A stretch of 64,000 nucleotides of DNA from Candidatus Falkowbacteria bacterium (GTDB lineage Bacteria; Patescibacteriota; Patescibacteriia; Patescibacteriales; UBA12465), in contig JAPLVY010000004.1 of assembly GCA_026396875.1 (NCBI GenBank), positions 10,828 through 74,827 of the forward strand, in the 5' to 3' direction. Below are positions 4,205 through 55,334 of the stretch, piece by piece. Position 1 is the first letter of the stretch. The number at the start of each line of letters is the position of its first letter. A model generated the notes under the pieces. That model saw nothing but the letters and a program-made list of their open reading frames with translations. It was not told where the DNA came from and did not search any database. The position numbers and the translations under genes are program-made.

Positions 4205-5179
4205 CTATAAGGAAACCATGAATAGTGTCAAGCCATTCATTAAATCTTTCTGCCCAGTCTTATTCTCGTAGTCCAAAAGGACTAGTCGATTAAAATATTC
4301 CGTCAATTCGGAAAGAGAAAAATTTTTTGCTTGGTTTAGCGACTTGGAAACCACAAAGGGGTGCAAACCAACTTCACTAGCGATTGCACCGGAAGTCTTT
4401 TTTCCTTCAAAACTTTTGACCTGGATAAGAATTTTAAAATGGCGAATCATCATTGCAAGCATTTGTTCGATGTCGATGCCGGCAGAAATTTGCTCCTCAA
4501 AAAGTTTGACTGTTAATTTCTTATTTCTTGACCCGAGGGCGTCTGTAAAAGAGAAGACGTCTTCTCCGTAGGCGCGACTACCAATTTCTTCCAAATCCTT
4601 GCTCTCTATTCTTCCTTCAGTTTTGAAGTAGGTGAGTTTTTTTATTTCATTGCTGATTTGCCAAAGACCTCCTTGGTGTCGAGCAACCAACTCACTTGCA
4701 GCTGCCGGTGAAATTGTTTTTCCTTCTTTTGCCAATTCTTCTTTAACAAAATTATTTAATTGGAGTGGACTGAGGGTTTTAAATTCTTGTGATAATTTCT
4801 GTCCAGCTAGGAATCCAAAAAGGGTTTTTGTTTTTGTTTTTAGTGGTGAGTTTTTGGTATTTAGTTCACCGTCTAAGAATATCAAAACATTGCGGTCATC
4901 TAAGTCAGCTAATTTCTGTTTTTCTAAGTAATCCTTTAGTTCAGTAAAGATTTTTTCCTGTTTGTTATTAAAAAAGTCCTCAATAATAATTAAGCGTTTG
5001 TTGACAAAAAGTGAGCCGGTATTTATCTGTTCGGCGATTTCTTTGATGCCAATTTTTGCGCCATCCAAAGTACTAATACTGGAGGCGCCAGAGTCCACCT
5101 TGTCTTGAAAATTCTGGCGGATTTCTTTAAGTTTTCGATGGCTACGAAAGGTGTCGGCGCCATAGAGAAAAATTATCAT
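4205..5179 (-). CDS. holA: DNA polymerase III delta subunit (HolA-like)
   Basis: 324 aa. The N-terminus MIIFLYGADTFRSHRKLKEI and the size are typical of clamp-loader delta. Its start overlaps the stop of the upstream Mur ligase gene (ATGA at 5176-5179). Confidence 0.6.
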   Translation of the reverse strand: MIIFLYGADTFRSHRKLKEIRQNFQDKVDSGASSISTLDGAKIGIKEIAEQINTGSLFVNKRLIIIEDFFNNKQEKIFTELKDYLEKQKLADLDDRNVLIFLDGELNTKNSPLKTKTKTLFGFLAGQKLSQEFKTLSPLQLNNFVKEELAKEGKTISPAAASELVARHQGGLWQISNEIKKLTYFKTEGRIESKDLEEIGSRAYGEDVFSFTDALGSRNKKLTVKLFEEQISAGIDIEQMLAMMIRHFKILIQVKSFEGKKTSGAIASEVGLHPFVVSKSLNQAKNFSLSELTEYFNRLVLLDYENKTGQKDLMNGLTLFMVSL

Positions 5180-7788
5180 AAATTCTTAATTGCTTCTTTA
5201 AACAGTCTGCCTTTTTCTTGAAAGTTCTTAAAAATACTATAGCTAGGAGATGCGGTAGAGAGAAGAACGGCTTTTTTATCAGCAGTGTTCTTGGCGGCAA
5301 AGATTACCGCTTCTTTCATACTGCTGGTTTCTAGAATTTTCGGCAAGCTTTTGCCTCGATAAATATTTTCTAACGCTTCTTTAATCCTTACTCCAGAGAA
5401 GGGGAAGAGCACGATATTGGAAATGTTTATCTTCTTCAATTTTTTGGCTAATTCGGAAAAATCATAACCGCGGTCTTCGCCACCGAGAATTATTGTATCC
5501 AATTTTCCTTCCAGATATTCAATGGCAACCAAAGTGGATTCTGGTGTTGTGGAAATGGCGTCATCGTAGAAATATAAATTGTTTTTCTCACCAACGAGCT
5601 CAAGGCGATGCTCCAACCCGGGAAAATTTTTCACGCCAGCGCGCACGCACGACAGAGGAATTTTCAGCGCCTTGATTACTGTGGCTGCAGCAGTGATATT
5701 TTTTAGGTTATGCTTTCCTGGTAACTTTATTTCATTGAGTGGCATTAATTTTTCGTTTTCGAAAAATAAATAGGTGCCATCTTCTTTCCAGGAATCATGA
5801 TAATCTTTTTTGTTGGCAAGACTTTCCCCGGCTACCAATTTAACGAACGGCGAAGCGCTATCATAAACGAAATAATCATTTTTTTGTTGCCATTTAGTGA
5901 TATTAGCTTTGGCGCGGCAATAATTTTGAAAGCCGCCGTGATAAGGGAGGTGGTCAGGAAAAATATTAATCATGACCGCTACTTTCGGGCTAGCTTGAAG
6001 GTTCTCTAATTGGTAACTCGACATCTCATAAACAAAGAAGTCTTTCTCTGAATTATTTTTTAGGTATTTCAGGGGATCATTGCCAATATTACCAACCAAA
6101 TAAACTTTTTTTCCAGCAGCTTTTAGCGCGCGGAAAATCAAGGTAGCAGTGGTGCTCTTGCCCTTAGTGCCGGTAATACCAATCACAGTGCCTCGACAGT
6201 TTTTTAAGAATATTTCAGTAATTGAGGTAAATTTTATTCCTCGAATTCTGGCGCTGGCAATTTCTGGAAATTGGTTGGTAATTCCTGGCGTTTTAATGAT
6301 CAAGTCAAATTCTTCCAAATGTTTTAAGTATTTTTTTCCTTCAAGAACTTCGCAATTTTTATCTGGGGCAATGATTTTATTTCTATCGGCCAGCCAGATT
6401 TTTAAGCCAGGATTTTTTTTGCGCCAATAGTGAAAAGCAAATTTCCCTTCCTTCCCAAATCCCAGGAGCAGGGTTTTCTGGAAACCATCGGGAATTAGGT
6501 GCTCTGGATTATTTCTTAAAGCGGAGTTAATTAGGGAATTTTTATCTTTTATTTTTGGTAAGATTTTTTTGCGGAAATATTCAACGATCAAAGAGTTGTC
6601 CCAGCTATGATTTTCACAAATTAAGACAAAGGCCGCCTTCACTTCCTCGGGTGTGCCAACACAATCAAAAGGCTTGAAAGCTTTTTCTCCCCACAGTTCT
6701 TGAAACACCGGTAGCAATTCTTTGTCGTCTAGAAGATTAGCGCCAAAAATTTTAATGCTAGTTTTTGGACTATTCCAGGCAGCGAAGATCGCTAGAGAGA
6801 AGGCGCATTTTGCACAAGTGCCGCACCAGCGTTTTTTTGCCTGGCCGTTAATTTTAAAGTTGCGATTACAACTGGAAAAGGAGCCAAAGTATTGTGGGTA
6901 CTTGGAAAATTCGCGGGCAATTTTTAATTCTGAGTATGGTCTTAGCAAACTGAAATACTGTAAATCGGGGGTCAAAAAATTGTGCAGGTAGTTAGCAAAA
7001 TCTTGTTCAAATTCAAAACTTTTGCTGTATTGATGGTTAATTTCCGTATCCAAATATCTTACATTACCAAAGTTGGCACTATGTTCGTTTGAAAAAATAA
7101 TATTTTGAAAATCACCCAAGATGGCAGCAACCACGCAAGTCCAGGAATAAATTGCCGAAATTGGTACATGGCCATTGTAAGCGCCGCTTTCGTTGAGACG
7201 AAAAAGACGCGCATCCATTTCTCGACCAATAATAACTCGTGGTGCACCGACAATTTGCGCGGTATCTTTCTGGATTTTGCTATCACGCAAACTAATAAGA
7301 GAAAACTGCTGGCCAATACTTTTTAATTTTTCAGCACTTAAGCAAGAGTCTTTTCCACCACCAATTGGCAACAAGCTGTGTTTTTTAAACTTCGCAGCTA
7401 TAGGTTTTATGCTTTTCCCGTGGGCGGGGAGATTTATTAGACCGCGGAAATCTATTTTGTTGCGATAAAAGAACTCACCCAAACCTTTCTCGTAGAGTTT
7501 ATTCCAAAATTCTGCCTGTGCTTTGTTCAAGGTGCCGCTTTTGATTTCAATCTTCTTCGGGCAGTAGGCTTTGAAATAGCCAACCCCAAGAGCAAGATGA
7601 AGATTAAAAAGGGCGCGATCGAGAAGCTCAAGATTTATTTGATGCCAATTGGTTTTGCAGGCGGAAAAGTCCAGAACTTCCTGAAAATCTAATTTTCCAT
7701 CAAAAGAGTAAGAAAAAGAGGCCAATTTAGTTCTTTGGTCGAAAGAGTAGTTTTTAAAAATGAAACTTTTTGGCAACTGTTTTTCCAT
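5176..7788 (-). CDS. murD: fusion protein: N-terminal PP-loop-like domain of about 440 aa (possible MurL-type epimerase) plus C-terminal MurD-type UDP-MurNAc-L-Ala:glutamate ligase
   Basis: The C-terminal half has GITGTKGKSTT (Mur ligase P-loop), DDAISTTPEST (compare MurD NDSKATN) and a Mur ligase C-domain. The N-terminal half has PIGGGKDSCLSAE (7345-7362, compare the SGGxDS PP-loop) and WCGTCAKCAF. Confidence 0.7.
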   Translation of the reverse strand: MEKQLPKSFIFKNYSFDQRTKLASFSYSFDGKLDFQEVLDFSACKTNWHQINLELLDRALFNLHLALGVGYFKAYCPKKIEIKSGTLNKAQAEFWNKLYEKGLGEFFYRNKIDFRGLINLPAHGKSIKPIAAKFKKHSLLPIGGGKDSCLSAEKLKSIGQQFSLISLRDSKIQKDTAQIVGAPRVIIGREMDARLFRLNESGAYNGHVPISAIYSWTCVVAAILGDFQNIIFSNEHSANFGNVRYLDTEINHQYSKSFEFEQDFANYLHNFLTPDLQYFSLLRPYSELKIAREFSKYPQYFGSFSSCNRNFKINGQAKKRWCGTCAKCAFSLAIFAAWNSPKTSIKIFGANLLDDKELLPVFQELWGEKAFKPFDCVGTPEEVKAAFVLICENHSWDNSLIVEYFRKKILPKIKDKNSLINSALRNNPEHLIPDGFQKTLLLGFGKEGKFAFHYWRKKNPGLKIWLADRNKIIAPDKNCEVLEGKKYLKHLEEFDLIIKTPGITNQFPEIASARIRGIKFTSITEIFLKNCRGTVIGITGTKGKSTTATLIFRALKAAGKKVYLVGNIGNDPLKYLKNNSEKDFFVYEMSSYQLENLQASPKVAVMINIFPDHLPYHGGFQNYCRAKANITKWQQKNDYFVYDSASPFVKLVAGESLANKKDYHDSWKEDGTYLFFENEKLMPLNEIKLPGKHNLKNITAAATVIKALKIPLSCVRAGVKNFPGLEHRLELVGEKNNLYFYDDAISTTPESTLVAIEYLEGKLDTIILGGEDRGYDFSELAKKLKKINISNIVLFPFSGVRIKEALENIYRGKSLPKILETSSMKEAVIFAAKNTADKKAVLLSTASPSYSIFKNFQEKGRLFKEAIKNL

Positions 7789-34085: not shown

Positions 34086-35954
34086 ATGTCCCAGGCCAAC
34101 ACAAAATCCGAGAAAAAACTCACCGGTCGGAAGTTTTTTAATGACCACCAAGAAGTGATGGCAATGCCTGATCTGATTGAGATTCAGAAAGATTCTTATC
34201 GCTGGTTTTTGGAAGAAGGCTTGGCTGAGCTCTTCGATGAGATTAATCCGATTTCTGACTTTATCGGTCGTGACCTAGAGTTGTATATGGAAGATTATTA
34301 TCTCGATGAGCCGAAGTTTAATGAAACTGAAAGTCGCGAGAAGAACATTACCTACGAAGCTTCTCTGCGCGTCAAGACTCGCTTGCTGAATAAGAAAACC
34401 AATCAGGCGATTTCTCAGGAGGTATTTTTGGGAGACTTCCCAATCATGACCGACAAGGGAACATTCATCATTAACGGAATCGAGCGCGTTATTGTTTCTC
34501 AGCTGATTCGTTCCGCTGGTGTAATGTTTACTGCCGAATTTGTTAAAGGAAAAAAATGCTACGGTGCCAAAATTATTCCGAATCGCGGTGCCTGGCTAGA
34601 AATTGAAACTGATCAAAATAAAGTTCTCTGGGTGCGTATTGATCGCAAGAGAAAAGTAGCCGTAACTTCTTTGTTGCGTGCTTTTGGCTACGTTAATGAT
34701 GAAGAATTAATCAACTTATTCAAAGACGTTGATTTAAAAAAGACTCCCGACGAAATCGGTTTCTTGGAAGCAACAATTGAAAAGGATGCTGCCAAAACCG
34801 AAGAGGAAGGTTTGCAAGAAGTTTACAAAAGAATCCGTCCAGGCGACTTGGCTTCCTCGGAGAATGCCCGCCAATTGATTCAATCAATGTTTTGCCGTTT
34901 CGACCGCTATGATTTTGGTCGTGTTGGTCGTTATAAATTAAATCGCCGCTTTGGTCTTGATTTAGCCAACAAGAAAGAAAATCGAGTTTTACGAAAAGAA
35001 GATCTGGTTTTAATTATTAAGGAAGTTATTCGTTTAAATATTGTTAAGGAGCCAGAGGATGATATTGATCACTTGGGAAATCGCCGCGTGCGCGCTATCG
35101 GTGGCTTGATTCAGAATCGTTTCCGCGTTGGTTTAGCGAGAATGGAACGTATTGTTAAAGACAGAATGTCCACTTCTGATATCGCCAGTATTACTCCAAC
35201 CAAACTGATCAATGCCCGACCAGTTATTGGTGTTGTCAAAGAATTTTTCATGTCTTCCCAGCTTTCTCAATTCATGGATCAGACTAACCCGCTAGCTGAA
35301 CTTGAGCACAAACGTCGTTTAAGTGCGATGGGTCCTGGTGGTTTGACTCGTGAACGTGCTGGCTTTGATGTTCGTGACGTGCATACCACTCACTATGGAC
35401 GCATCTGTCCAATTGCTACTCCGGAAGGTCCAAACATCGGCCTAGTTGGTCATCTTTCTAGTTTTGCTCGTCTGAATAGCTATGGCTTCCTGGAAACTCC
35501 TTATCGCAAGGTTGTTCATGAGAATACTGGTAGCCGAGTAACCAACGAAATTGTTTATATTGACGCTTTTGAAGAAGAAAAATTTATTACCGCTGATGCC
35601 ACCATCCCAATGGATGAGACTGGCAAGATTTTGGTAAATAAATTTCAGGTGAGAAAATTTGGTCAGCCGGCAACCGAAGAAACTGCTAAAGTAGATCTCG
35701 TTGGTGTTGCCGCCAATCAGATTATTTCTATTGCCACCAGCTTAATTCCTTTCATGGAACACAACGATGGTCAGAGATCTTTAATGGGAACAAACATGCA
35801 ACGTCAGGCTGTGCCTTTAGTTAAGGCTGAAGCGCCTGTTGTTGGTACTGGAGTTGAAGAAAGAGCGGCTCGTGACTCTGGTCACGTCGCGATTGCTAAA
35901 GAAGACGGTATAGGCTGTCCGAGTAGATTCTTCTTGTATCGAAACAATCGATAA
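34086..35954 (+). CDS. rpoB: RNA polymerase beta subunit, fragment 1 of 3 (frame broken near 35913)
   Basis: The conserved RpoB N-terminal two thirds are present ([66 protein letters not shown]). The last 14 codons ([13 protein letters not shown]) are off-frame. Confidence 0.9.
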
Positions 35955-35961
35955 GAAGGGA

Positions 35962-36300
35962 ATGGTTACTCGTTATACCTTGAATAAATTTTTACGTTCC
36001 AATTCCTCAACTTGTATTAACCAGCATCCAACAGTTAGTGTTGGTGATAAAATCAAAAAAGGCGACGTCTTGTCCGACGGTCCTTCTATCGACAATGGCG
36101 AGTTGTCTCTCGGTCGCAATGTCCTAGTAGCCTTTATGACCTGGGAAGGCTATAACTACGAAGATGCGGTTATTATTTCGGAACGCTTAGTTAAAGAAGA
36201 TGTTTATTCTTCTATTCATATTGAAAATTATACAATCGATGTTCGCGATACTAAATTAGGTCCGGAACTTATTACTAATGATATTCCAAATATCAGATGA
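35962..36300 (+). CDS. rpoB: RNA polymerase beta subunit, fragment 2 of 3 (conserved reading actually resumes at 35914)
   Basis: [44 protein letters not shown] and [15 protein letters not shown] are present, in the +1 frame relative to fragment 1. Confidence 0.9.
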
Positions 36301-37453
36301 AGAGGGTATTATTCGCATCGGCGCTGAAGTTTCTTCTGGCGACATTTTGGTTGGCAAGATCACTCCGAAAGGAGAAACTACGCTATCTGCTGAAGAAAAA
36401 TTATTACGTGCTATTTTTGGTGAGAAAGCCAAAGATGTTCGAGATTCTTCTTTGTACCTCGAGCACGGTGAACACGGTAAAGTAGTCGACATTAAATTAT
36501 TCTCTCGCGAAGAAGGCGATAAATTATCCGCCGGTGTTTTGAAATCAATTCAGATTTCTGTGGCTAATCTCCGAAAAATTCAGGTCGGTGATAAAATGTC
36601 CGGACGCCACGGAAACAAGGGGGTTATTTCCAAGATTGTTCCAGTGGAAGATATGCCTTATTTGGAAGACGGCACACCAATCGACATTATTCTTTCTCCT
36701 TTGGGTATTATTTCTCGTATGAACCTCGGTCAGTTGCTTGAAACTCACCTCGGTTTTGCGGCGAAAAAATTAGGATATCGAGTTGCTACCCCGGCCCTGA
36801 ACGGTGTTTCTGAAGAACAAATCCGTGAAGAATTACGAAAAGCTGGTTTGCCAGAAGATGGAAAAGTGGTGCTTTATGATGGCAAGACCGGTGATCCATA
36901 TGATCACAAGATTACTGTTGGCTATAAATATGTCTTGAAGCTCAACCACATGGTTGAAGATAAAATCCATCAACGTTCCATTGGTCCTTACTCTTTAATC
37001 ACTCAACAACCTTTGGGTGGTAAAGCACAATTTGGTGGCCAGCGTTTTGGTGAAATGGAAGTCTGGGCTCTTGAAGGCTATGGCGCCGCCCATACTTTGC
37101 AAGAAATTTTGACCATCAAATCCGATGACGTTCCTGGACGCAGCAAGGCTTATGAATCAATCATTAAGGGTGAAGAAATCGAAAAACTGAATGTTCCAGA
37201 ATCTTTTAACGTGCTTATTCGCGAATTGAAAGGTCTCTGTCTTGATGTTGAACTTCTTGGCAATAATGAAGTTTTAGAGGTACCGAAAGAAACGCCGGCA
37301 GAAATTTTTGCTGCCGAAGAAAATGGCAGGGCAAAAGATGATAAGTTTGCCTTTGATGCCCCAGAAGTTATTGTCCAAGAAGGAGAGTTGGCTGAACTGG
37401 AAAAACTTGATGAAACCGAAGCCGTCGAAGAGCCAAGTCCACTGGAAGAATAA
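36278..37453 (+). CDS. rpoB: RNA polymerase beta subunit, fragment 3 of 3 (conserved reading resumes about 36293)
   Basis: [83 protein letters not shown] are present, in the +1 frame relative to fragment 2. Confidence 0.9.
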
Positions 37454-47768: not shown

Positions 47769-49160
47769 TTAAGGGGAGCAGGCTTTTCCCGGCGGCATGC
47801 CATATTGAAAGTGCCACCATTCTCCGCAATATCTAACCCAGCCAGCTTTTTTCATGATATCTTGTAATTTCTTTACATTATCATCAGAATAAGTTGCGTT
47901 GGCAGCACTAAGCTTCGAGCAGGAGGCAGTTCCTTTGATACAAATATCCACAGCTACACCAGCACAGTGGCTATAACATTTATTTCCCGTGCAGTTCGCC
48001 GGATCAGCAACATATTTTCTGGTCTTTGCGGCATCGCCCCCGAATTTTGCTAATTGTTCGTCCCAAAGTCTTTTTTGTGTATTATAGCCTCGGTTAGCAC
48101 TGGTAACTTCAAGCTGTACGCCCTGCTTGCTAGCTTCTTCTATAGCTTTATCTAAGCCGCTTACTGCATCGGCTGATAGTCGCGGGTCACTAGCGACGGT
48201 TGTTAGCTTACTCTTGATGCTTACCAATTGACTGTCACTCAGACAACTCGCTCCGCCAGCAGCGTTGGTTTGGCTGTCACTACCATCAAGAACTGGGTCT
48301 AATTTCTCGATATATCCGATGACTAGTGGTTTCAAAATTAAAATATCGGGATTAATAATGGAGATTAGCATGTAAGAAGAAAACATGATCACCAAACCGC
48401 TGATGCTGCCAAAAATCATTTCTTTGGCGGTCTTCATTCGCGAAGCATTGCTTCCGGAAATTAACCAGATTATACCGCCAGCCATCATGGTTACTGCGGC
48501 GATTGAGCCGATTATAATAAGAGCGTAGTTATAGATAGCGACCAAGTATTGACCGATCCAAGGGACAACGCAGGTCGCATTGCCAGCCGCTCCTTCACAG
48601 TTTACTTTTGGGCAAGTGTATTTTTTTGTGCTCTGATCATATTTACACCCCATTGAGTCATAAAGGCCGGGGACTGGTACATTCAAATCATCAAAGGGGT
48701 TATTGAGAATTGCCGCTGGCTTGGCATCAAGCGCTGGTGTGCCGCAGCAACAAATGAAACTACCTCTGTCGGTAGCTGCTGGACGATCGCCGTGTCCTGA
48801 GTCTGAGCAGGTTTTGTCGGGAAGGATTGGGATCAGCGAATTGTTTGAACATTTTCCCGCTAAATCAGCTACCTGCCAAGAACAATCTTTTCGCACGGTA
48901 ATACCAATTGAAGCTGGGTCACAGCAACATTCCGCAAAAACACTTGGCGCGGTCAATCCTTGTCCGGTGCAGACAGAATTCTCTTGCGCAGTGTAGCCAA
49001 CATAGCTTGCCCCAGGGCAGTGAGTGGTGTTTGGCGGAATAACGATTGGGCTAACCCAAGCACAGTTTCCCGCGTTGGCTTTATTCCCAAAACTAAAAAC
49101 AAAACCCGTAAGCAATAAGGCTAGAAGTATTAGATAATTTTTATTTTTTTCTCTTCTCAT
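47769..49160 (-). CDS. secreted Cys-rich / T4SS-pilin-like (TrbC/VirB2-type) / VanY-M15 D,D-peptidase fusion protein
   Basis: The signal peptide ends ...FGNKANA-GN. Two CxW...C...C...CCC modules occupy aa 33-80 and 93-139. The pilin-like core is AAVTMMAGGIIWLISGSNASRMKTAKEMIFGSISGLVIMFSSYMLISIINP. The C-terminus has SANRGYNTQKRLW, HCAGVAVD and EWWHF (LAS/M15 Zn-peptidase pattern). Confidence 0.65.
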   Translation of the reverse strand: MRREKNKNYLILLALLLTGFVFSFGNKANAGNCAWVSPIVIPPNTTHCPGASYVGYTAQENSVCTGQGLTAPSVFAECCCDPASIGITVRKDCSWQVADLAGKCSNNSLIPILPDKTCSDSGHGDRPAATDRGSFICCCGTPALDAKPAAILNNPFDDLNVPVPGLYDSMGCKYDQSTKKYTCPKVNCEGAAGNATCVVPWIGQYLVAIYNYALIIIGSIAAVTMMAGGIIWLISGSNASRMKTAKEMIFGSISGLVIMFSSYMLISIINPDILILKPLVIGYIEKLDPVLDGSDSQTNAAGGASCLSDSQLVSIKSKLTTVASDPRLSADAVSGLDKAIEEASKQGVQLEVTSANRGYNTQKRLWDEQLAKFGGDAAKTRKYVADPANCTGNKCYSHCAGVAVDICIKGTASCSKLSAANATYSDDNVKKLQDIMKKAGWVRYCGEWWHFQYGMPPGKACSP

Positions 49161-50038
49161 TTTTGTTGGTATCTAACAATGTTCTCATTGGCAATTTTTT
49201 GAATTGTTTGAAGATCCTCTTCTTTAAGGTGCTTGAACCGGCCTTGAGTTTTTAGGTAGTCTGTGACTGGCTTAGCAATAAATCCAGTTTTAATGTTAGA
49301 AGAAACCAATTTTCCTTCGCGGTATTCGAGCAATGGGTAAAGCCCAGTTTCGGCCGCTAATTTACCCATCGACACTCCTTCATCAGTTCCTATTTTCCAA
49401 CCAGGCATACAGGGAGAAAGAATTTGAATATAAGTTGGTCCGTCTATTTCTAGAGCGGTTTTTACTTTTCTAGTGATATCGTCAGGGAAGCCAGCAGTGC
49501 TTTGAGCGATGTATTTTAAACCATGAGCAAGGGCAACCCCAATCATGTCTTTTTTTGTTTGTGTTGAGCCAATTGATTTTTCTCCATTGGGTGTGGTGGT
49601 GGTGGAGGCTCCATAAGGGGTTGCCCCGGAAGCCTGAATTCCAGTGTTTGAATAAGCTTCAGTGTCGTAACAAATATAGAGAATTCTTTCGTTCCTTTCC
49701 CACATGCCGCTTACCTGTCCAAAACCGATATCAAAAGTGCCACCATCTCCAGCTTGTACTACTACTGTGGGCATATTTTTTATCTTTTGTTTTTTGAGAG
49801 CCGCCAAAATTCCAGAAGCCACTGGAGCACTGCTCTCAAACAAAGTATGAATCCAAGGAATATTCCAAGCGCTTTGATTTCTAGAAGAAGAAGTCACTTC
49901 CAGACAACCGGTAGCGTTGGAAACAATGGTGTTTTCGTTTAGACCACGCATCACCGCTTGCACGGCAACTAGTTGTCCGCAGCCAGCGCAAGCGTTATGT
50001 CCGGGAAGAAGCAATTTTTTACTATAATCTTTTTTCAT
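49157..50038 (-). CDS. porB: 2-oxoacid (pyruvate-type):ferredoxin oxidoreductase beta subunit
   Basis: CAGCGQ, the TPP-binding GDGGTFDIG and YDTEAYSNTG are present. Its stop overlaps the start of the pilin-M15 gene (ATGA at 49157-49160). Confidence 0.85.
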   Translation of the reverse strand: MKKDYSKKLLLPGHNACAGCGQLVAVQAVMRGLNENTIVSNATGCLEVTSSSRNQSAWNIPWIHTLFESSAPVASGILAALKKQKIKNMPTVVVQAGDGGTFDIGFGQVSGMWERNERILYICYDTEAYSNTGIQASGATPYGASTTTTPNGEKSIGSTQTKKDMIGVALAHGLKYIAQSTAGFPDDITRKVKTALEIDGPTYIQILSPCMPGWKIGTDEGVSMGKLAAETGLYPLLEYREGKLVSSNIKTGFIAKPVTDYLKTQGRFKHLKEEDLQTIQKIANENIVRYQQK

Positions 50039-50080
50039 ATTTTTATTCTTTCTTTTTCACTTATTTCCTATAGCTTTTGA

Positions 50081-51394
50081 TTATTTTGTGGTGTTACAGC
50101 AATAATATTCAGGTTGGCAACTAGCGCCAAGGTTCCACATGTCTCGGTATAGTTCTTGGCCGGTCTTATCAACCAGACCGCATTTCTCATCTTTTTCTGT
50201 TCCCTCTTGGCTTTTGTAACAGCGACTTCCGGGTTTAGTGCCACAGGGCATGCCTGGACCCATTTGTCCGTAATGCGTGTAGCAAGTACCGCCATAACAT
50301 TCTCCATAACTTCTCGAGCCAGATTTGCAGTAGTCCCCCTCTTTAGCAGTTGAACAATCAAGAATGTTATTTTGGCATTCAGTTACAGCACTGCAGTTTC
50401 CCGTTTGAAAGGTAGCATTCTGGGTGCGACCCAAGCGGTCTTTGCAGAGACCGCTGCTAATATTTGTGCAGATTGTTTCCATTTTATTCAAATCGTCAAT
50501 TGGAGTCTTGATAACACAGCAACCAGCGGCAACGCAGGCGTTTCCTTCCTTAATGTAGCCAAATTTTCTTGCGCCACCAGCATCTTTGCAGGCGGAATCA
50601 GTTACCATTTCAGCATTATCTGGGTATTGGCAACAAATTAATTCTATACGCGCAATAATTGGCGTGACAATTGGATTTAATTTTATTAAAGCTGGATTGA
50701 TGGTGCTTAAAATCAAATAAGATCCATAGAGCAGGGCTACTCCCGCTAAGCTACCAAAAATCATTTCCTTGGCCTTGGTAACTCTACTTTCATTTCCAGC
50801 CGAAGTTAGCCAGAGTATTCCGCCTGCCATCAAAATCACTGCGGCGACAATTCCAACAATGGTTAGTAAATATTTATATACTGAGCCGATATAAATTGGC
50901 AATAAATCGCTAACCATTGATCTGGCACCAGTTTTGGGGTCAACAATGGGGTGACCGACGGTCACAGTATCGCCCTTGGTAAAGTATCCTGGGATGGAAA
51001 TTTGAGGCGTGAAAGAGGCGGAAGCATTTACCCCTGGAGTTTTTGGCGCAGGGATGTCGGTCATGTCCACATTTTCCGAAGGAGTCGGGGGAACACAATA
51101 GCCCTGTGTTCCAAGGGGAGCCTTAACGCAAATTAGGCCAGCACTGCAAGTAGAATTGTTTTGACAGGTGGCACCAGAGCCAGTTTGAATACATACACCA
51201 TAAGTTGTGCCATTAAACATTTGGCAATACAAATTAACATCGGTGCAATTGGCATTGCTTGTGCAGCTGTCCCCAAATGATCCTGCCGCTAAAGCATTAC
51301 TTCCGCCGGCGATTAAGCCGACAAGCAAAAAGCAGCCAATAATCCAATAGGCAAAAATTTTTTTTGCGTATTTTTTGTTTTTATTTTTCTCCAT
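50081..51394 (-). CDS. Cys-rich T4SS-pilin-like surface protein (paralog 2)
   Basis: A signal peptide and Cys-rich N-domain are followed by FTPQISIPG. The core is AAVILMAGGILWLTSAGNESRVTKAKEMIFGSLAGVALLYGSYLILSTINPALI. The C-terminal domain is Cys-rich with CC pairs (LICCQYP, AGCCVIK, EYYCCNTTK). Confidence 0.6.
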   Translation of the reverse strand: MEKNKNKKYAKKIFAYWIIGCFLLVGLIAGGSNALAAGSFGDSCTSNANCTDVNLYCQMFNGTTYGVCIQTGSGATCQNNSTCSAGLICVKAPLGTQGYCVPPTPSENVDMTDIPAPKTPGVNASASFTPQISIPGYFTKGDTVTVGHPIVDPKTGARSMVSDLLPIYIGSVYKYLLTIVGIVAAVILMAGGILWLTSAGNESRVTKAKEMIFGSLAGVALLYGSYLILSTINPALIKLNPIVTPIIARIELICCQYPDNAEMVTDSACKDAGGARKFGYIKEGNACVAAGCCVIKTPIDDLNKMETICTNISSGLCKDRLGRTQNATFQTGNCSAVTECQNNILDCSTAKEGDYCKSGSRSYGECYGGTCYTHYGQMGPGMPCGTKPGSRCYKSQEGTEKDEKCGLVDKTGQELYRDMWNLGASCQPEYYCCNTTK

Positions 51395-51444
51395 ATCTTT
51401 TTGGTACCAGAAAATATTGTTTTAATGATTGAAAATAATATCCT

Positions 51445-52563
51445 TTAGTCCTTAGTACAACAGCGCAGGTTTGGTCCACAGTTGCGTCCACCAACTTGAT
51501 CCCAGCTATAACCGGAAGGGCAAGAGGAAGGCAAGCAGTGGCTGGTTGGTGTTTCATTGCCGCAAGGTTCATTAGCCTCTCCTACATTATTGCCTTGAAA
51601 ATCGCTAGTCCAGCAAACTTCGTCATAGCATGTTCCACTATGAGGGCAGTCATCTCCATTGGATTTGCCGACACAATAATGATATTTAAGCATTGCTTGA
51701 TCTTGGTTGCACCAGTAGCCAATACAGTATTCGGGGTGCGGTTGGTAGATGCAGTAATTGGCGCCCTGGTCAGAATTTGCTACATCAGCGTAGTTATCGC
51801 CACAAGCAGCACAAGGACCAGCACCGGGGCCATCTATACCAAGGTAAGTGGCCCATTTGCAGTTCACGTATGCGCCGTTATTATTTGTTTGGCAGCAGCA
51901 TTGGACATTGGGTTCGTTGGTGAACTCTGTTTTGTCGGCGGAGCATTTGGTGACCCCGGCTTCAATTTTACCCAGACACTTATTATCTTTCCAGATGCAA
52001 TATGGTAAAGTCACACAGGTCTCCTGGGTTTTTAATTCACTGCAGGTGGTTATTGGTGCTGTTTGGACATCTTTGCGAGCGATGCTTGGCGATTGTATTG
52101 GTTTTAATTCAATCAGCGCAGGATTGATGGTTGCAAGAATCAGGTAAGAACCGTATAGCAGGGCTACTCCTGTTAAACTGCCAAAAATCATTCCCTTCGC
52201 TTTGGTAATTTTACTTTCGTTTCCAGCGGAAGTCATCCACAAAATACCTCCAGCCATTAGAATTACCGCCGCCAGAATCCCCACAATTGCTAAGGCATAT
52301 TGGTAGAAAGCGCCCACATAACGAGGAAGCAAAGAACTTTGTGAATAAAATACTCCTTTTATTTCTGTCTCTCCGCCGACATTAACGGCAGTACCTTTTT
52401 GAAATTCAGTAGTTGGCAGAGATATTTGCGGAGTGAATTGAATATCGCCGACTGAAATGGCCAAAGCGTTAGCACTAACAAACAAGGAGCCGGCTATTAT
52501 TATATAAATAATAAATAAATAGCGAAATTTTTTTTTCTCAAATATTTTTTTTAGATTTTTCAT
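51445..52563 (-). CDS. Cys-rich T4SS-pilin-like surface protein (paralog 1)
   Basis: A signal peptide is followed by FTPQISLP. The core is AAVILMAGGILWMTSAGNESKITKAKGMIFGSLTGVALLYGSYLILATINPALI. The C-terminal domain is Cys-rich (VQCCCQTN, LRCCTKD). Confidence 0.6.
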   Translation of the reverse strand: MKNLKKIFEKKKFRYLFIIYIIIAGSLFVSANALAISVGDIQFTPQISLPTTEFQKGTAVNVGGETEIKGVFYSQSSLLPRYVGAFYQYALAIVGILAAVILMAGGILWMTSAGNESKITKAKGMIFGSLTGVALLYGSYLILATINPALIELKPIQSPSIARKDVQTAPITTCSELKTQETCVTLPYCIWKDNKCLGKIEAGVTKCSADKTEFTNEPNVQCCCQTNNNGAYVNCKWATYLGIDGPGAGPCAACGDNYADVANSDQGANYCIYQPHPEYCIGYWCNQDQAMLKYHYCVGKSNGDDCPHSGTCYDEVCWTSDFQGNNVGEANEPCGNETPTSHCLPSSCPSGYSWDQVGGRNCGPNLRCCTKD

Positions 52564-52571
52564 AATCGCGT

Positions 52572-53738
52572 TTATTTACCCAGAAAGACTGGCTTAATAT
52601 TTTTAGCGCTAATTAATCTAAGCATTTTTTTGATTAAATTTCGGCTGATGTCACGACCGCCAAGTCCGGCAACAAAATTATTAATAATAATTTTTTTGTC
52701 TCTAATGCCACTGCTTATTTCTAGGTATAAAGGAGAAAAAGTTCCGTTACCGCTAGCTTTTTCTAAAATTGCTACCTGTTTCACGTCTTTTAAAATAGTG
52801 GCAATCTCTTGATGCGGGAAAGGGCGAAAGCATTTTATTTTCAAGACTCCGACATTTTGATATTTTTTGTCTTTCAGGGTTTCCTTGATGGTTCCGATTA
52901 CCGAACCCATTGCAATAATAATTGTTTTTGGTTTCTTTGGCCCGCAATACTCCAAGAAGCCGTTATCGATCAGGGCGTTAGATTTCTCGCGGGCGAATAT
53001 TTTTTGGAAATTTTTATATTCGGTGTTAATGTCTTTGGCGCTAGCCAACAAGTTTTCGTGTAGTTTTTCTCTGGCTTCAAAATAAAATTCTGGACCATAA
53101 AATTCCCCAAGAGAACTCGGATGTTTGGGGTCGAGAGCTTCTCCGATTCTTATTGGGCGGGCAGGGAGGAATTTTTTGATTAGTGTCGGCTCCGGAATAA
53201 TCACCGGTTCGAATAAATGGGTTAGAATAAAACCATCAACATTAACCATTGCTGGGAGACGGTATTTTTCGGCAATTTTATAAGCCAAAATATGTTGGTC
53301 AACTGCTTCCTGATGATTTTCAGCAAAAAACTGCAGCCAGCCAGCGTCGCGCACGGTCATGGTGTCGCTGTGATCATTCCAAATATTGATTGGCGCAGAA
53401 ACTGCTCGGTTAGCGTCAGTCATGACTACTGGCAAGCGCAAGCCGGAAATACAGTATACTACTTCATTCATCAACAATAGTCCCTGACCGCTAGTGGCGC
53501 TATAAGTTCTGGCTCCAGTGGCGCTTGCGCCCATGACTATTGAGGCGGCAGAGAACTCACTTTCGGCCCGAACATATTCAAAACTAGCCTTCCCTGAGGC
53601 GTGTAAATTAGCCAAGTCCTCCACGATGTGAGTCTGTGGTGTTATTGGATAGGCGCTTACTACTTGAGGTTGAATGTTGGCGATTACCATGGCAATCGCT
53701 CGTGAACCTTCAAGAAATTGTTTTTTTTGTTTTTGCAT
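52572..53738 (-). CDS. porA: 2-oxoacid:ferredoxin oxidoreductase alpha subunit
   Basis: 388 aa. GSRAIAMVIANIQPQVVSAYPITPQT and a transketolase-like pyrimidine-binding domain are typical of PorA. Confidence 0.85.
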   Translation of the reverse strand: MQKQKKQFLEGSRAIAMVIANIQPQVVSAYPITPQTHIVEDLANLHASGKASFEYVRAESEFSAASIVMGASATGARTYSATSGQGLLLMNEVVYCISGLRLPVVMTDANRAVSAPINIWNDHSDTMTVRDAGWLQFFAENHQEAVDQHILAYKIAEKYRLPAMVNVDGFILTHLFEPVIIPEPTLIKKFLPARPIRIGEALDPKHPSSLGEFYGPEFYFEAREKLHENLLASAKDINTEYKNFQKIFAREKSNALIDNGFLEYCGPKKPKTIIIAMGSVIGTIKETLKDKKYQNVGVLKIKCFRPFPHQEIATILKDVKQVAILEKASGNGTFSPLYLEISSGIRDKKIIINNFVAGLGGRDISRNLIKKMLRLISAKNIKPVFLGK

Positions 53739-53742
53739 ATAT

Positions 53743-53994
53743 TCAAAAATCTTTTTTCATTTCTATTGCTTTTACTGGGCATTCGCGAACACAAAGCGCG
53801 CAGCCTTTGCAATAATCATAATCGATGACTGCTAGTCTTTCTTTCATTTCGATACAGGCTTCTGGGCAGATTTTGGCGCACAAAGAACAACCAATGCATT
53901 TTTTGGGATCGATTTCTGGGCGATGAGTTCGCCAATTTCCGGTTTTATTGCTTAGAGAGTTATTTTTGGTAATCATATGCTTCGCGGACAGCAA
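53743..53994 (-). CDS. porD: 2-oxoacid:ferredoxin oxidoreductase delta subunit (2x[4Fe-4S] ferredoxin)
   Basis: CIGCSLCAKICP and CKGCALCVRECP cluster motifs are present. The start may be the internal Met (MITKNN). Confidence 0.85.
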   Translation of the reverse strand: MLSAKHMITKNNSLSNKTGNWRTHRPEIDPKKCIGCSLCAKICPEACIEMKERLAVIDYDYCKGCALCVRECPVKAIEMKKDF

Positions 53995-54532
53995 TTAAAT
54001 TTTTGTTAATAATTTCTTTGCCTTTTTCTTGAAATTTCTCTGAAATTGCCAGTTCTAAATTTTTCAAGGGGAACAATTTGCTCGCCTTAATAAAAGTTCC
54101 AAGAATCACGGTATTCACTATATTTCTACCAATAATTCTCAAGGCAATCTCCGTTGCTGGTGCGCAGTGAATATTTTTTTCGTTTATTTTTATGCCAGTT
54201 TCTTTTTTGATTAGCAAGGATATTTCTTTAGGGGAATTTTCGCTGTTTACTATCACTAGGGTTCTTTCAGAAATGCCGGAGAAAATATGAGCTTGTCCTA
54301 AAAGAGTGTGGTCTTGGATAATTAAGAAGTCAGGATGGTATACCTGATCTCTCGTGATAATTGCTTTATTTGAAAGACGAGCAAAGGCCGAGATTGGGGC
54401 TCCACTTCTCTCAACGCCAAAAAGTGGAAAGGCCTGAGCCTCCAGACCAGCAAAAAATCCGGCAGCGGCGATTAGCTCAGCTCCGGTGACCACTCCTTGG
54501 CCGCCTCTTCCGTGGATTCTTACTTCTTGCAT
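53960..54532 (-). CDS. porG: 2-oxoacid:ferredoxin oxidoreductase gamma subunit
   Basis: MQEVRIHGRGGQGVVTGAELIA is the PorG N-terminus. I prefer the ATG at 54532 to the track start at 54589, which overlaps the dsbA-like gene. Confidence 0.85.
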   Translation of the reverse strand: MQEVRIHGRGGQGVVTGAELIAAAGFFAGLEAQAFPLFGVERSGAPISAFARLSNKAIITRDQVYHPDFLIIQDHTLLGQAHIFSGISERTLVIVNSENSPKEISLLIKKETGIKINEKNIHCAPATEIALRIIGRNIVNTVILGTFIKASKLFPLKNLELAISEKFQEKGKEIINKNLIAVREAYDYQK

Positions 54533-54533
54533 A

Positions 54534-55334
54534 TTAGTTTGCACTAGTGGAGCTTGCGGCGGGAGAAGCAGTTTCAACCCCAGGTCCATTTTTGATTAAT
54601 TCTTGAATCATACTTTCCAGTTCTTCCTGACTAATCAAGCCGTCTACTTTATAGTTATTGACGAACCAGGTGGGAGAACCAGTTATTTGCAGGGTATTGG
54701 CAACTTCCATGTCAGAGCTAAGTACCCCCAAATATTTTTTACTTGTCAGGCACGTAGAAAATATTTTTTCATCGGCGCCCAAACTAGCAGCGATTTTTGG
54801 CAAATCGCCATTATTGATTTTTCCCTGAAGATCAAAGAGACGGTCATGCATTGGCCAGAACAAGCTACCGCCCTTGTTCTGCTGTTCTCCCGCGCAAAGA
54901 GCAGCTAAAGCTAACTCTTCAGAGTCGGTGTGCAGAATCAAGTTGCGGAAAATCATTTTCACCTGGTTGCCATATTTACTCATAATTGCTTTGATTGCTG
55001 GTTGATTTTCTTTGCAGTAGGGGCAGGCAAAATCAGAAAATTGTACAATTATAATATCTGCCTTTGGATTGCCAAGATAAGGACGGTTTTCTCCCTCAAC
55101 TAAAAGTTTTATTAAATCTGGTCTTTTGCCGGAATAAAGAGCAGCACGATCAGCATTGATTCTGGTGACGCTTTGATAAACATAAATACCAGCCATAGTG
55201 ACTAGAGAGATCGTTAAAGCCAGAATAATCAAAATCATTATTCCCCACCACTTTTTATACCAAGGAATCAGCTTATTTTTGTGGCGTTCTTTCATGCCAG
55301 CCATTCTAATACGGTCTTGTAATTCGTTATCCAT
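54534..55334 (-). CDS. membrane-anchored DsbA/thioredoxin-fold thiol:disulfide oxidoreductase
   Basis: One TM helix (WWGIMILIILALTISLVTMAGIYVY) is followed by FSDFACPYCKE (CxxC active site) in a DsbA-like fold. Confidence 0.8.
   Translation of the reverse strand: MDNELQDRIRMAGMKERHKNKLIPWYKKWWGIMILIILALTISLVTMAGIYVYQSVTRINADRAALYSGKRPDLIKLLVEGENRPYLGNPKADIIIVQFSDFACPYCKENQPAIKAIMSKYGNQVKMIFRNLILHTDSEELALAALCAGEQQNKGGSLFWPMHDRLFDLQGKINNGDLPKIAASLGADEKIFSTCLTSKKYLGVLSSDMEVANTLQITGSPTWFVNNYKVDGLISQEELESMIQELIKNGPGVETASPAASSTSAN

Follow-up and report, generated by a model that had tools for sequence, protein, structure and literature searches.

In methanogens, Thermotoga and Helicobacter, the four-subunit pyruvate:ferredoxin oxidoreductase (POR) is encoded by a porGDAB (porCDAB) operon, in the order gamma, delta, alpha and beta. 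DsbA proteins of the Gram-positive type, such as Staphylococcus aureus DsbA with its CPYC active site or Bacillus BdbD, are encoded beside their substrates. In Patescibacteria, arrays of VirB2-like pilins (T4SS_pilin family, PF18895; T4SS for type IV secretion system) have been described, one of which is essential in Ca. Southlakia epibionticum (PMC12102498), and modular type IV pilins are also described in the literature. Here, we analyzed 64,000 nucleotides of DNA (hereafter the window) from Candidatus Falkowbacteria bacterium (NCBI GenBank assembly GCA_026396875.1, contig JAPLVY010000004.1, positions 10,828 to 74,827 of the forward strand), where an array of eight genes combines a por operon, a dsbA-like gene and three genes for Cys-rich, exported proteins with a VirB2-type hairpin, two of them lying between porA and porB.

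With envelope genes written E and por genes P, the array reads E-P-P-P-E(-E)-P-E (Table 1). It shares with the porGDAB operons the four subunit types, their domains and cofactor motifs (solved relative PDB 9bt4) and the gamma-delta-alpha-beta order. However, one or two genes whose products are exported membrane proteins here come between the alpha and beta genes, and the operon is extended by a dsbA-like gene in front and a pilin-like/hydrolase gene behind. Like the VirB2-like arrays of Patescibacteria (PMC12102498), it contains highly divergent paralogues of the same Pfam family, arranged in tandem or one non-pilin gene (porB) apart. However, the proteins of the window differ from those of these arrays in having 372-463 residues, with large Cys-rich or enzymatic ectodomains (100-220 aa) on one or both sides of the hairpin; classical VirB2/TrbC proteins are small and consist essentially of the hairpin. 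Moreover, their genes sit in a metabolic operon (the word ‘ferredoxin’ is absent from PMC12102498) and, unlike those of classical VirB2, have no T4SS genes adjoining them in the loci examined. The DsbA-like protein resembles the Gram-positive type in its membrane association, its Thioredoxin_4/DSBA family and its CPYC motif, and in sharing a predicted operon with secreted Cys-rich proteins, although porGDA lies between its gene and those of its presumed substrates. Finally, the last gene combines a wall-hydrolase domain with a secretion/pilus-type module, as do membrane-tethered or T4SS-associated hydrolases (VirB1, PrgK, TrsG) and modular pilins. Unlike the separate hydrolase of the VirB1 type, however, the domain is fused directly to a VirB2-like hairpin, and the fusion partner varies (VanY/M15 here; NlpC_P60, Amidase_2, SLT, 3D or C39-like elsewhere) while the position after porB is kept. 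In full-text literature searches, no account of such genes interrupting a por operon came up, in line with the initial annotation, which knew of no precedent.

We found that this layout is shared by all related loci that can be read. GTDB species representatives were scanned with a PorB alignment, which gave 289 relatives, and the best 80 (PorB 59-85% identical; records mostly titled Candidatus Falkowbacteria or Patescibacteria) were used. Their loci were annotated by BLASTP against the window proteins and with a hidden Markov model of the hairpin core, and all spacer figures for relatives are based on the starts of the longest open reading frames (ORFs), hence approximate. In the first relatives, homologues of pilin-like 1 that are just 34-42% identical occupy exactly the same context in other assemblies (ExoIII< >DsbA porG porD porA PILIN porB PILIN-hydrolase <RNaseH <RecJ <LepA). 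Considering the window, these first relatives and the GTDB loci together, all 74 genomes with the porA-porB junction on the contig hold only pilin-like genes there, one in 67 genomes and two in seven, and at least one pilin-like gene follows porB in 63 out of 70 genomes. Spacers in these loci have medians of -1.5, 3.5 and -4 nt, and 35 of 67 porB-to-downstream junctions are 4-nt overlaps. PorA orthologues in the relatives are 52-82% identical. A metagenome scan ranked on the PorB of a sister lineage contributed 80 additional loci, and with these included at least one T4SS_pilin-like gene lies between porA and porB at 93/93 related readable junctions.

A neighbour-joining tree of 167 PorB sequences places the 93 interrupted loci in one clade, from which uninterrupted loci are absent; the seven clade members with an undetermined junction are truncated contigs. 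Outside the clade, porA abuts porB in 54/54 loci. Outgroups were reached by comparing PorB with a library of 50%-identity representatives, then by a homologue search with one of these (P0172), and then by the metagenome scan, while the best 120 matches of a PorA homologue search were all inside the clade and gave no outgroup. No PorB representative from outside the clade exceeds 53% identity, and P0172, among the closest of them at 49%, belongs to a family made mostly of archaeal PorB from methanogens, Bathyarchaeota and Thermoplasmata. In Methanothermobacter (porGDAB plus porEF) and Desulfonauticus (porDAB) the genes are contiguous with porA abutting porB. Together with the 54 further loci, this bears out the earlier premise that contiguous porGDAB is the norm. 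By contrast, the idea of an insertion peculiar to this genome fails, as 93/93 related loci share the layout and are monophyletic on PorB; likewise, the initial annotation had proposed a synteny survey and named, as refuting its reading, an insertion absent from all relatives and attributable to mis-assembly, and 92 further loci turned out to share the order.

The layout therefore looks old and inherited. The comparison indicates that it arose once, deep in a Patescibacteria lineage that includes Candidatus Falkowbacteria and sister groups, with vertical inheritance since. In the sampled loci, the middle slot (porA-X-porB) has never been vacated, the downstream slot is sometimes lost and its hydrolase domain swapped, and only the second middle copy is a local tandem duplication. 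Many contigs with the locus (L007, L012, L015, L016, L037, L075 and others) are titled ‘uncultured Gammaproteobacteria’, ‘Thermoplasmatales archaeon’ or ‘Planctomycetota’, which are probably placeholder or wrong taxonomic labels, or reflect bin contamination.

The arrangement is also kept in divergent lineages. In three loci of sister lineages (L087, L088 and L170; PorB of the first two 53-55% identical to that of the window), the flanks differ, with an ornithine or arginine decarboxylase gene upstream and rpoC downstream, and the order is DsbA porG porD porA PILIN PILIN-hydrolase, two small ORFs, then porB (porD of L170 is not listed by the gene caller). The small ORFs, of about 70 aa, form a pair before porB (L087:8035-8464; L088:8104-8557; L170:7935-8530; also L091:7033-7875), one member of which is a DUF2283 protein, while its partner has no Pfam match and looks toxin-antitoxin-like; a gene for a 23S_rRNA_IVP protein (four-helix bundle) is also present between pilin-like gene and porB in L091. 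Two other loci, L132 and L144, have a PorB that is 49-50% identical to that of the window (LeuRS of L132 46%), i.e. as distant as archaeal PorB, and despite this divergence present porA PILIN porB PILIN-hydrolase. L132 has no porD between porG and porA, which overlap (4596-6327). In four loci (L079, L083, L084 and L145) dsbA-porG-porD is inverted to the other strand and porA-PILIN-porB stays together; the latter directly follows the exonuclease III gene (4-18 nt), and the por genes form two divergent units. L059 has an extra gene for a pilin-like protein of 237 aa between porD and porA. Outside the clade, one por operon (L101:1-4177) is interrupted independently, by two genes identified with Pfam, one for an exported cyclophilin-type PPIase at the porD-porA junction and one for an NTP_transferase at the porA-porB junction, indicating that por operons of uncultured lineages can carry unrelated genes.

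Concerning the enzyme, the four separate subunits carry the expected gamma, delta, alpha and beta domains, all with Pfam matches above cut-off. The porG product matches POR (116 bits) and the NCBIfam subfamily PorC_KorC (171.7 bits, cut-off 81.1). That of porD is a 2x[4Fe-4S] ferredoxin-like protein (Fer4_7/Fer4, Fer4 dicluster; PorD_KorD 97 bits, cut-off 60). The porA product has POR_N (229 bits) and PFOR_II domains, and that of porB a TPP_enzyme_C domain. The best solved relative of PorB is 9bt4_C, a PFOR beta subunit (E = 3.6e-77), and its translation contains the TPP-binding motif (GDGGTFDIG…YDTEAYSNTG) and cysteines at the four positions of the proximal [4Fe-4S] cluster, i.e. C-A-G-C (HNACAGCGQ), ATGC and SPC; motif and cysteines are invariant in a four-genome PorB alignment. 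The top NCBIfam models of all four subunits are those of archaeal pyruvate synthase (PorA_Arch, PorB PRK11865, PorC and PorD_Arch), with ketoisovalerate (VOR) models ranking next after PorA_Arch and PorB PRK11865. Pyruvate would thus be the likely substrate, although PorA (406 bits) and PorB (343 bits) score under the equivalog cut-offs of 550 and 405. Except for the contiguity of its genes, the enzyme is by its sequences a typical four-subunit POR: two genes and 2.5 kb separate porA from porB, a departure of layout and not of enzyme family.

The three pilin-like proteins share a strongly conserved core of about 85 residues (…Y.Y.L.I.G..AAV.LMAGGI.W..S..N.S….AK.MIFGS…….SY….INP). In pilin-like 1, a Sec signal peptide (…ANALA) precedes a short ectodomain, after which come a two-helix membrane hairpin (~78-146) and a Cys-rich C-terminal ectodomain of ~220 aa. 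The AlphaFold2 model of this protein (mean pLDDT 71, residues 241-293 poor) has helices at 78-111 and 116-146 (pLDDT ~80-83), followed by a beta-rich, Cys-rich C-terminus. Pilin-like 2 is its tandem paralogue (76% identical in the hairpin core, 44% over the whole protein), with an additional Cys-rich N-terminal segment. The third protein has a signal peptide, a Cys-rich N-terminal ectodomain, the membrane hairpin (~200-284) and a C-terminal VanY/M15 zinc peptidase domain (VanY 35.3 bits, cut-off 25; Peptidase_M15 27.8 bits, cut-off 27), whose zinc ligands (H-x6-D … H) can be read in SHCAGVAVD and WWHFQY. If both ends of the hairpin are extracellular, as in the VirB2 type, an extracytoplasmic location is predicted for the Cys-rich and M15 domains.

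The assignment to the T4SS_pilin family gains from the homologues. All 29 sequences aligned with pilin-like 1 (alignment A3) match PF18895 at E <= 0.01 (best E 1.4e-8), as do 60 of 71 downstream proteins at E <= 0.001, and one homologue carries the NCBI name ‘pilin’; pilin-like 1 itself matches T4SS_pilin at E = 3.8e-4, under the Pfam cut-off, and NCBIfam has no family match for the pilin-like proteins. AxA-type signal peptides are readable in the translations, so that the combination of signal peptide and two-helix hairpin that marks the VirB2-like family is present. The word ‘pilin’ in the initial annotation thus holds for a T4SS_pilin/VirB2-type two-helix hairpin (Pfam, AlphaFold2) and not for a pilin of a type IV pilus, and the host-contact role suggested for these proteins is conjecture. 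At every locus examined in detail, the pilin-like genes are flanked by housekeeping genes and not by T4SS genes, and no T4SS domain was found in the ten largest other ORFs of the window.

Among the relatives, the proteins encoded in the middle and downstream slots form separate orthologous groups: for 151/152 hairpin cores, the closest core in another genome is of the same positional class. In the middle class the N-terminus is short and free of Cys, and the C-terminal ectodomain (~193 aa) contains a median of 20 Cys. In the downstream class it is the N-terminal ectodomain that is Cys-rich, and the C-terminal domain varies. Cell-wall hydrolase domains, interchangeable among species, are present in about half of the downstream proteins; the Pfam domains found in the 71 are VanY (18), Peptidase_M15 (12), Peptidase_C39_2 (5), NlpC_P60 (5), 3D (2) and SLT (1), and the downstream protein of L089 carries Amidase_2. 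A short Cys-rich module ending in CCC recurs in the ectodomains of both classes (window 48700-48960 and 51880-51910, and proteins of L088 and L089; AECCCDP, FICCCGTP, VQCCCQTN and CKCCCKT), with no match to any Pfam family or solved fold.

The dsbA-like product matches Thioredoxin_4 (PF13462, 90.5 bits) and DSBA (PF01323, 62.2 bits), both above cut-off, and its translation shows the CPYC active-site motif as well as an N-terminal transmembrane helix with the hydrophobic segment WWGIMILIILALTISLVTMAGIYVY. Among loci whose contig includes porG, 79/81 interrupted ones have a DsbA-like gene upstream of porG vs 0/42 uninterrupted ones, a co-occurrence with the interruption that speaks against this gene being a bystander. 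In one locus without por genes nearby (L171, 5248-7455), a DsbA-like gene is followed after 3 nt by a pilin-like homologue of 484 aa with 22 Cys, and then by uvrA; the active site of this DsbA-like protein is CPNS, with a single cysteine, and not CxxC. The DsbA-like protein would be the natural folding catalyst for the Cys-rich ectodomains, with the pilin-like proteins as its probable substrates. The simplest reading is an envelope module, made of an oxidoreductase and disulfide-rich substrates, interleaved with the por genes. We also considered that ferredoxin reduced by POR might feed extracellular disulfide chemistry, and rejected it: disulfide formation yields electrons, and the operon has no transfer component of the DsbD/CcdA type.

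As for the expression of the array, the divergent intergenic region of ~67 nt between the exonuclease III gene and dsbA holds a promoter-like site that is a candidate promoter for the entire array, and the only convincing minus-strand terminator in a terminator scan lies after the last gene, with a free energy of -15.8 kcal/mol and z = -5.06 (0/200 shuffles fold as well; RNA fold). The same scan found no terminator-like hairpin between array genes in the window. Gene identities, order, spacers, the ATGA overlap and the single terminator, as given in the initial annotation, are all borne out by the ORF listing, reading of the sequence, Pfam and the terminator scan.

Table 1. Genes and control sites of the array (numbering of the 64,000-nt window; all array genes are on the minus strand).
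Feature	Start	End	Strand	Remarks
Promoter-like site	55380	55408	-	TTCATA, 17-nt gap, TATAAT, with upstream TG (extended -10); consensus scan and reading of the sequence; consensus match only
dsbA-like	54534	55334	-	266 aa; TAA ends at 54534, then one T
porG (gamma)	53960	54532	-	190 aa; ATG at 54532, 1 nt past the dsbA stop
porD (delta)	53743	53976	-	77 aa; ATG at 53976 overlaps the porG 3' end (porG stop at 53960)
porA (alpha)	52572	53738	-	388 aa; 8-nt spacer to pilin-like 1
pilin-like 1 (middle class)	51445	52563	-	372 aa; 50 nt to pilin-like 2
pilin-like 2 (middle class)	50081	51394	-	437 aa; 42 nt to porB
porB (beta)	49157	50038	-	293 aa; stop within ATGA 49160-49157
pilin-like/M15 (downstream class)	47769	49160	-	463 aa; start shares ATGA with the porB stop
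Intrinsic terminator	47721	47751	-	13-bp stem, then T run; between the convergent array and RNase H gene

All eight array ORFs are intact and match their orthologues. Elsewhere in the window, rpoB is split over three ORFs in different frames (34086-35954, 35962-36300 and 36278-37453, plus strand; span 34086-37453), more likely through indel errors of the assembly than through two frameshifts in an essential gene, and this calls for some caution on exact gene boundaries elsewhere in the window. An ORF of 745 aa (11393-13630, plus strand) has no Pfam match at E <= 1e-5, and its surroundings are ordinary housekeeping genes (PolA, Mur ligases, FtsK, iPGM, MurJ and glycogen synthase).

Our favoured reading, to which we give a probability of about 0.6, is that the eight genes are a single polycistronic unit, an ancient composite operon of two interleaved modules. 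The first would be an archaeal-type four-subunit pyruvate (2-oxoacid):ferredoxin oxidoreductase (porG, porD, porA, porB). The second, an envelope module, would consist of the membrane-anchored DsbA-like oxidoreductase and three Sec-exported proteins, each predicted to join a VirB2/T4SS_pilin-type two-helix hairpin to disulfide-rich ectodomains, the last with an additional VanY/M15 peptidoglycan peptidase domain. The promoter upstream of dsbA would start a transcript that ends at the single terminator, and ribosomes would be handed from cistron to cistron via the short spacers and overlapping stop/start codons. POR would then assemble in the cytoplasm, while the pilin-like proteins would be exported, anchored in the membrane or polymerised via the hairpin, and oxidised by DsbA, and the terminal hydrolase domain would act on peptidoglycan. 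Surface and cell-wall proteins would in this way necessarily be produced together with the central enzyme of pyruvate oxidation. The most probable explanation is that a metabolic operon with strong, constitutive expression carries the envelope genes along, which requires no direct biochemical link between the modules. The middle gene may also resist loss, porB having come to rely on this context for its expression.

Several observations weigh against this composite operon. Co-transcription and translational coupling are what we infer from the sequence, and the proposed oxidase activity of DsbA on the pilin-like proteins is based on genomic association (the 79/81 vs 0/42 count and the L171 pair). 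Nothing in the comparative data links POR and the envelope proteins biochemically in a functional cooperation. Tight spacing is the norm in this genome, with 30 of 39 same-strand neighbour pairs in the window separated by 50 nt or less (median 7), so that the spacing argument by itself is weak; it is the conservation of gene order in relatives, and not spacer size, that appears to exceed chance. Even this conservation may in part reflect generally slow rearrangement in the clade, as the flanking housekeeping genes (LeuRS, ExoIII, RNase H, RecJ and LepA) are likewise syntenic across most of the 80 GTDB loci. Promoter-like hexamers also occur inside the array, e.g. at 55075-55048 and 53302-53275, and in the sister lineages the 500-1000 nt from the last pilin-like gene to porB leave room for internal promoters. 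As to the family, the three proteins of the window score 20.9, 21.3 and 17.8 bits against T4SS_pilin, under its gathering cut-off of 26.6. A Foldseek search of the pilin-like 1 model against the PDB gave nothing below E = 0.25, just helical-hairpin look-alikes, and the hairpin-core profile found no true VirB2, TraA or TrbC match among PDB sequences. Since short helical hairpins are hard to detect, the missing PDB match is weak negative evidence. Matches of this profile to designed ‘Pizza’ repeat proteins and FXYD peptides were rejected as spurious.

Some of these observations would fit a frozen accident without co-regulation, where separate internal promoters serve the pilin-like genes and porB, and adjacency is kept by rare rearrangement. 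The equal synteny of flanking housekeeping genes in most loci agrees with this, as do the cyclophilin and NTP-transferase genes of L101, which suggest that por operons tolerate passengers, and the DUF2283-type small ORFs and 23S_rRNA_IVP gene in the wide gaps of the sister lineages. Promoter-like hexamers are also over-represented in the region (33 found vs 18.8 +/- 4.6 expected in a consensus scan), although AT-rich DNA gives many hexamer matches and the scan decides neither for nor against internal promoters. However, porB and the pilin-like genes are preceded by spacers of 25 nt or less, or by overlaps, at 62/74, 65/74 and 66/67 junctions, leaving no intergenic room for promoters or terminators in most loci. 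The lack of hairpins between the genes of the window and the fact that the arrangement outlives changes of both flanks also argue against an accident, which we regard as unlikely.

Alternatively, the middle pilin-like protein might be a functional POR accessory, either tethering it to the membrane or linking pyruvate oxidation or reduced ferredoxin, as an outlet, to the cell surface, its position having been selected for stoichiometric co-assembly. The middle slot is filled in every one of the 93 loci, while the downstream gene is missing in 7/70. The porA-pilin-porB unit stays intact despite inversion of porGD and changed flanks, 4-nt overlaps occur at 21/74 porA-to-pilin junctions (longest-ORF calls), and por operons of methanogens do carry accessory genes, such as porE and porF in Methanothermobacter (L085). 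Yet, after cleavage of the signal peptide, just the interhelix loop (~5-10 residues) would face the cytoplasm, where POR sits, and the motif of this loop recurs throughout the T4SS_pilin family, in the downstream class as well as in homologues encoded away from por operons. The ectodomain evolves fast, with 34-42% identity vs 57-85% for PorA/PorB in the same genome pairs, and has no evident haem or Fe-S binding motifs, and the DsbA-pilin pair of L171 does without por genes. An accessory role is therefore quite unlikely in our view. We consider very improbable its stronger form, in which the middle protein is an obligatory, clade-specific partner of POR that links central pyruvate oxidation, physically or functionally, with the cell surface, for example by positioning POR at the membrane site where a host cell is contacted or by providing a route for reducing equivalents. 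If true, such a partnership would explain why the slot between porA and porB was never emptied in the 93 sampled genomes.

A further proposal, improbable in our opinion, reverses the origin: an envelope operon (dsbA, pilin-like and pilin-like/hydrolase genes) would have been invaded by horizontally acquired, archaeal-type por genes in two blocks, porGDA and porB. This concerns the origin alone and is compatible with the composite operon as a mechanism. The adjacent dsbA-pilin pair of L171, the distance to the nearest outside PorB together with the mostly archaeal family of P0172, and the strict co-occurrence of DsbA with the interruption are all consistent with it. Nevertheless, it takes two insertions, or one insertion and a rearrangement, vs a single pilin-like insertion between porA and porB, and the one por-free dsbA-pilin example that was examined has CPNS instead of CxxC. 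Finally, an assembly artefact or a strain-specific recent insertion, for which the broken rpoB of the window, with its probable indel errors, might plead, is refuted by the comparative data, as the eight ORFs of the array are intact and the 92 further related loci, drawn from GTDB genomes and public metagenome/run assemblies, share the order at protein identities down to ~50%.

The layout is therefore robust and apparently undescribed, without a demonstrated new mechanism. It represents a clean genomic synapomorphy that helps delimit Falkowbacteria-like lineages, and it can flag mislabelled metagenome-assembled genomes, such as those behind the loci in records titled Gammaproteobacteria, Thermoplasmatales or Planctomycetota. 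It suggests a likely role for the DsbA-like gene in folding the Cys-rich VirB2-like proteins, and indicates that VirB2-like hairpins in Patescibacteria serve as anchors for interchangeable peptidoglycan hydrolase domains, apart from T4SS loci. With a membrane-protein gene between their cistrons, it also offers a natural test case for the stoichiometry of PorA vs PorB. If the eight genes are indeed one transcript, a whole lineage of ultra-small and probably host-dependent bacteria would tie the expression of its surface and wall-remodelling proteins strictly to that of its main enzyme of pyruvate oxidation. Such hard-wiring of the envelope to energy metabolism would be rare.

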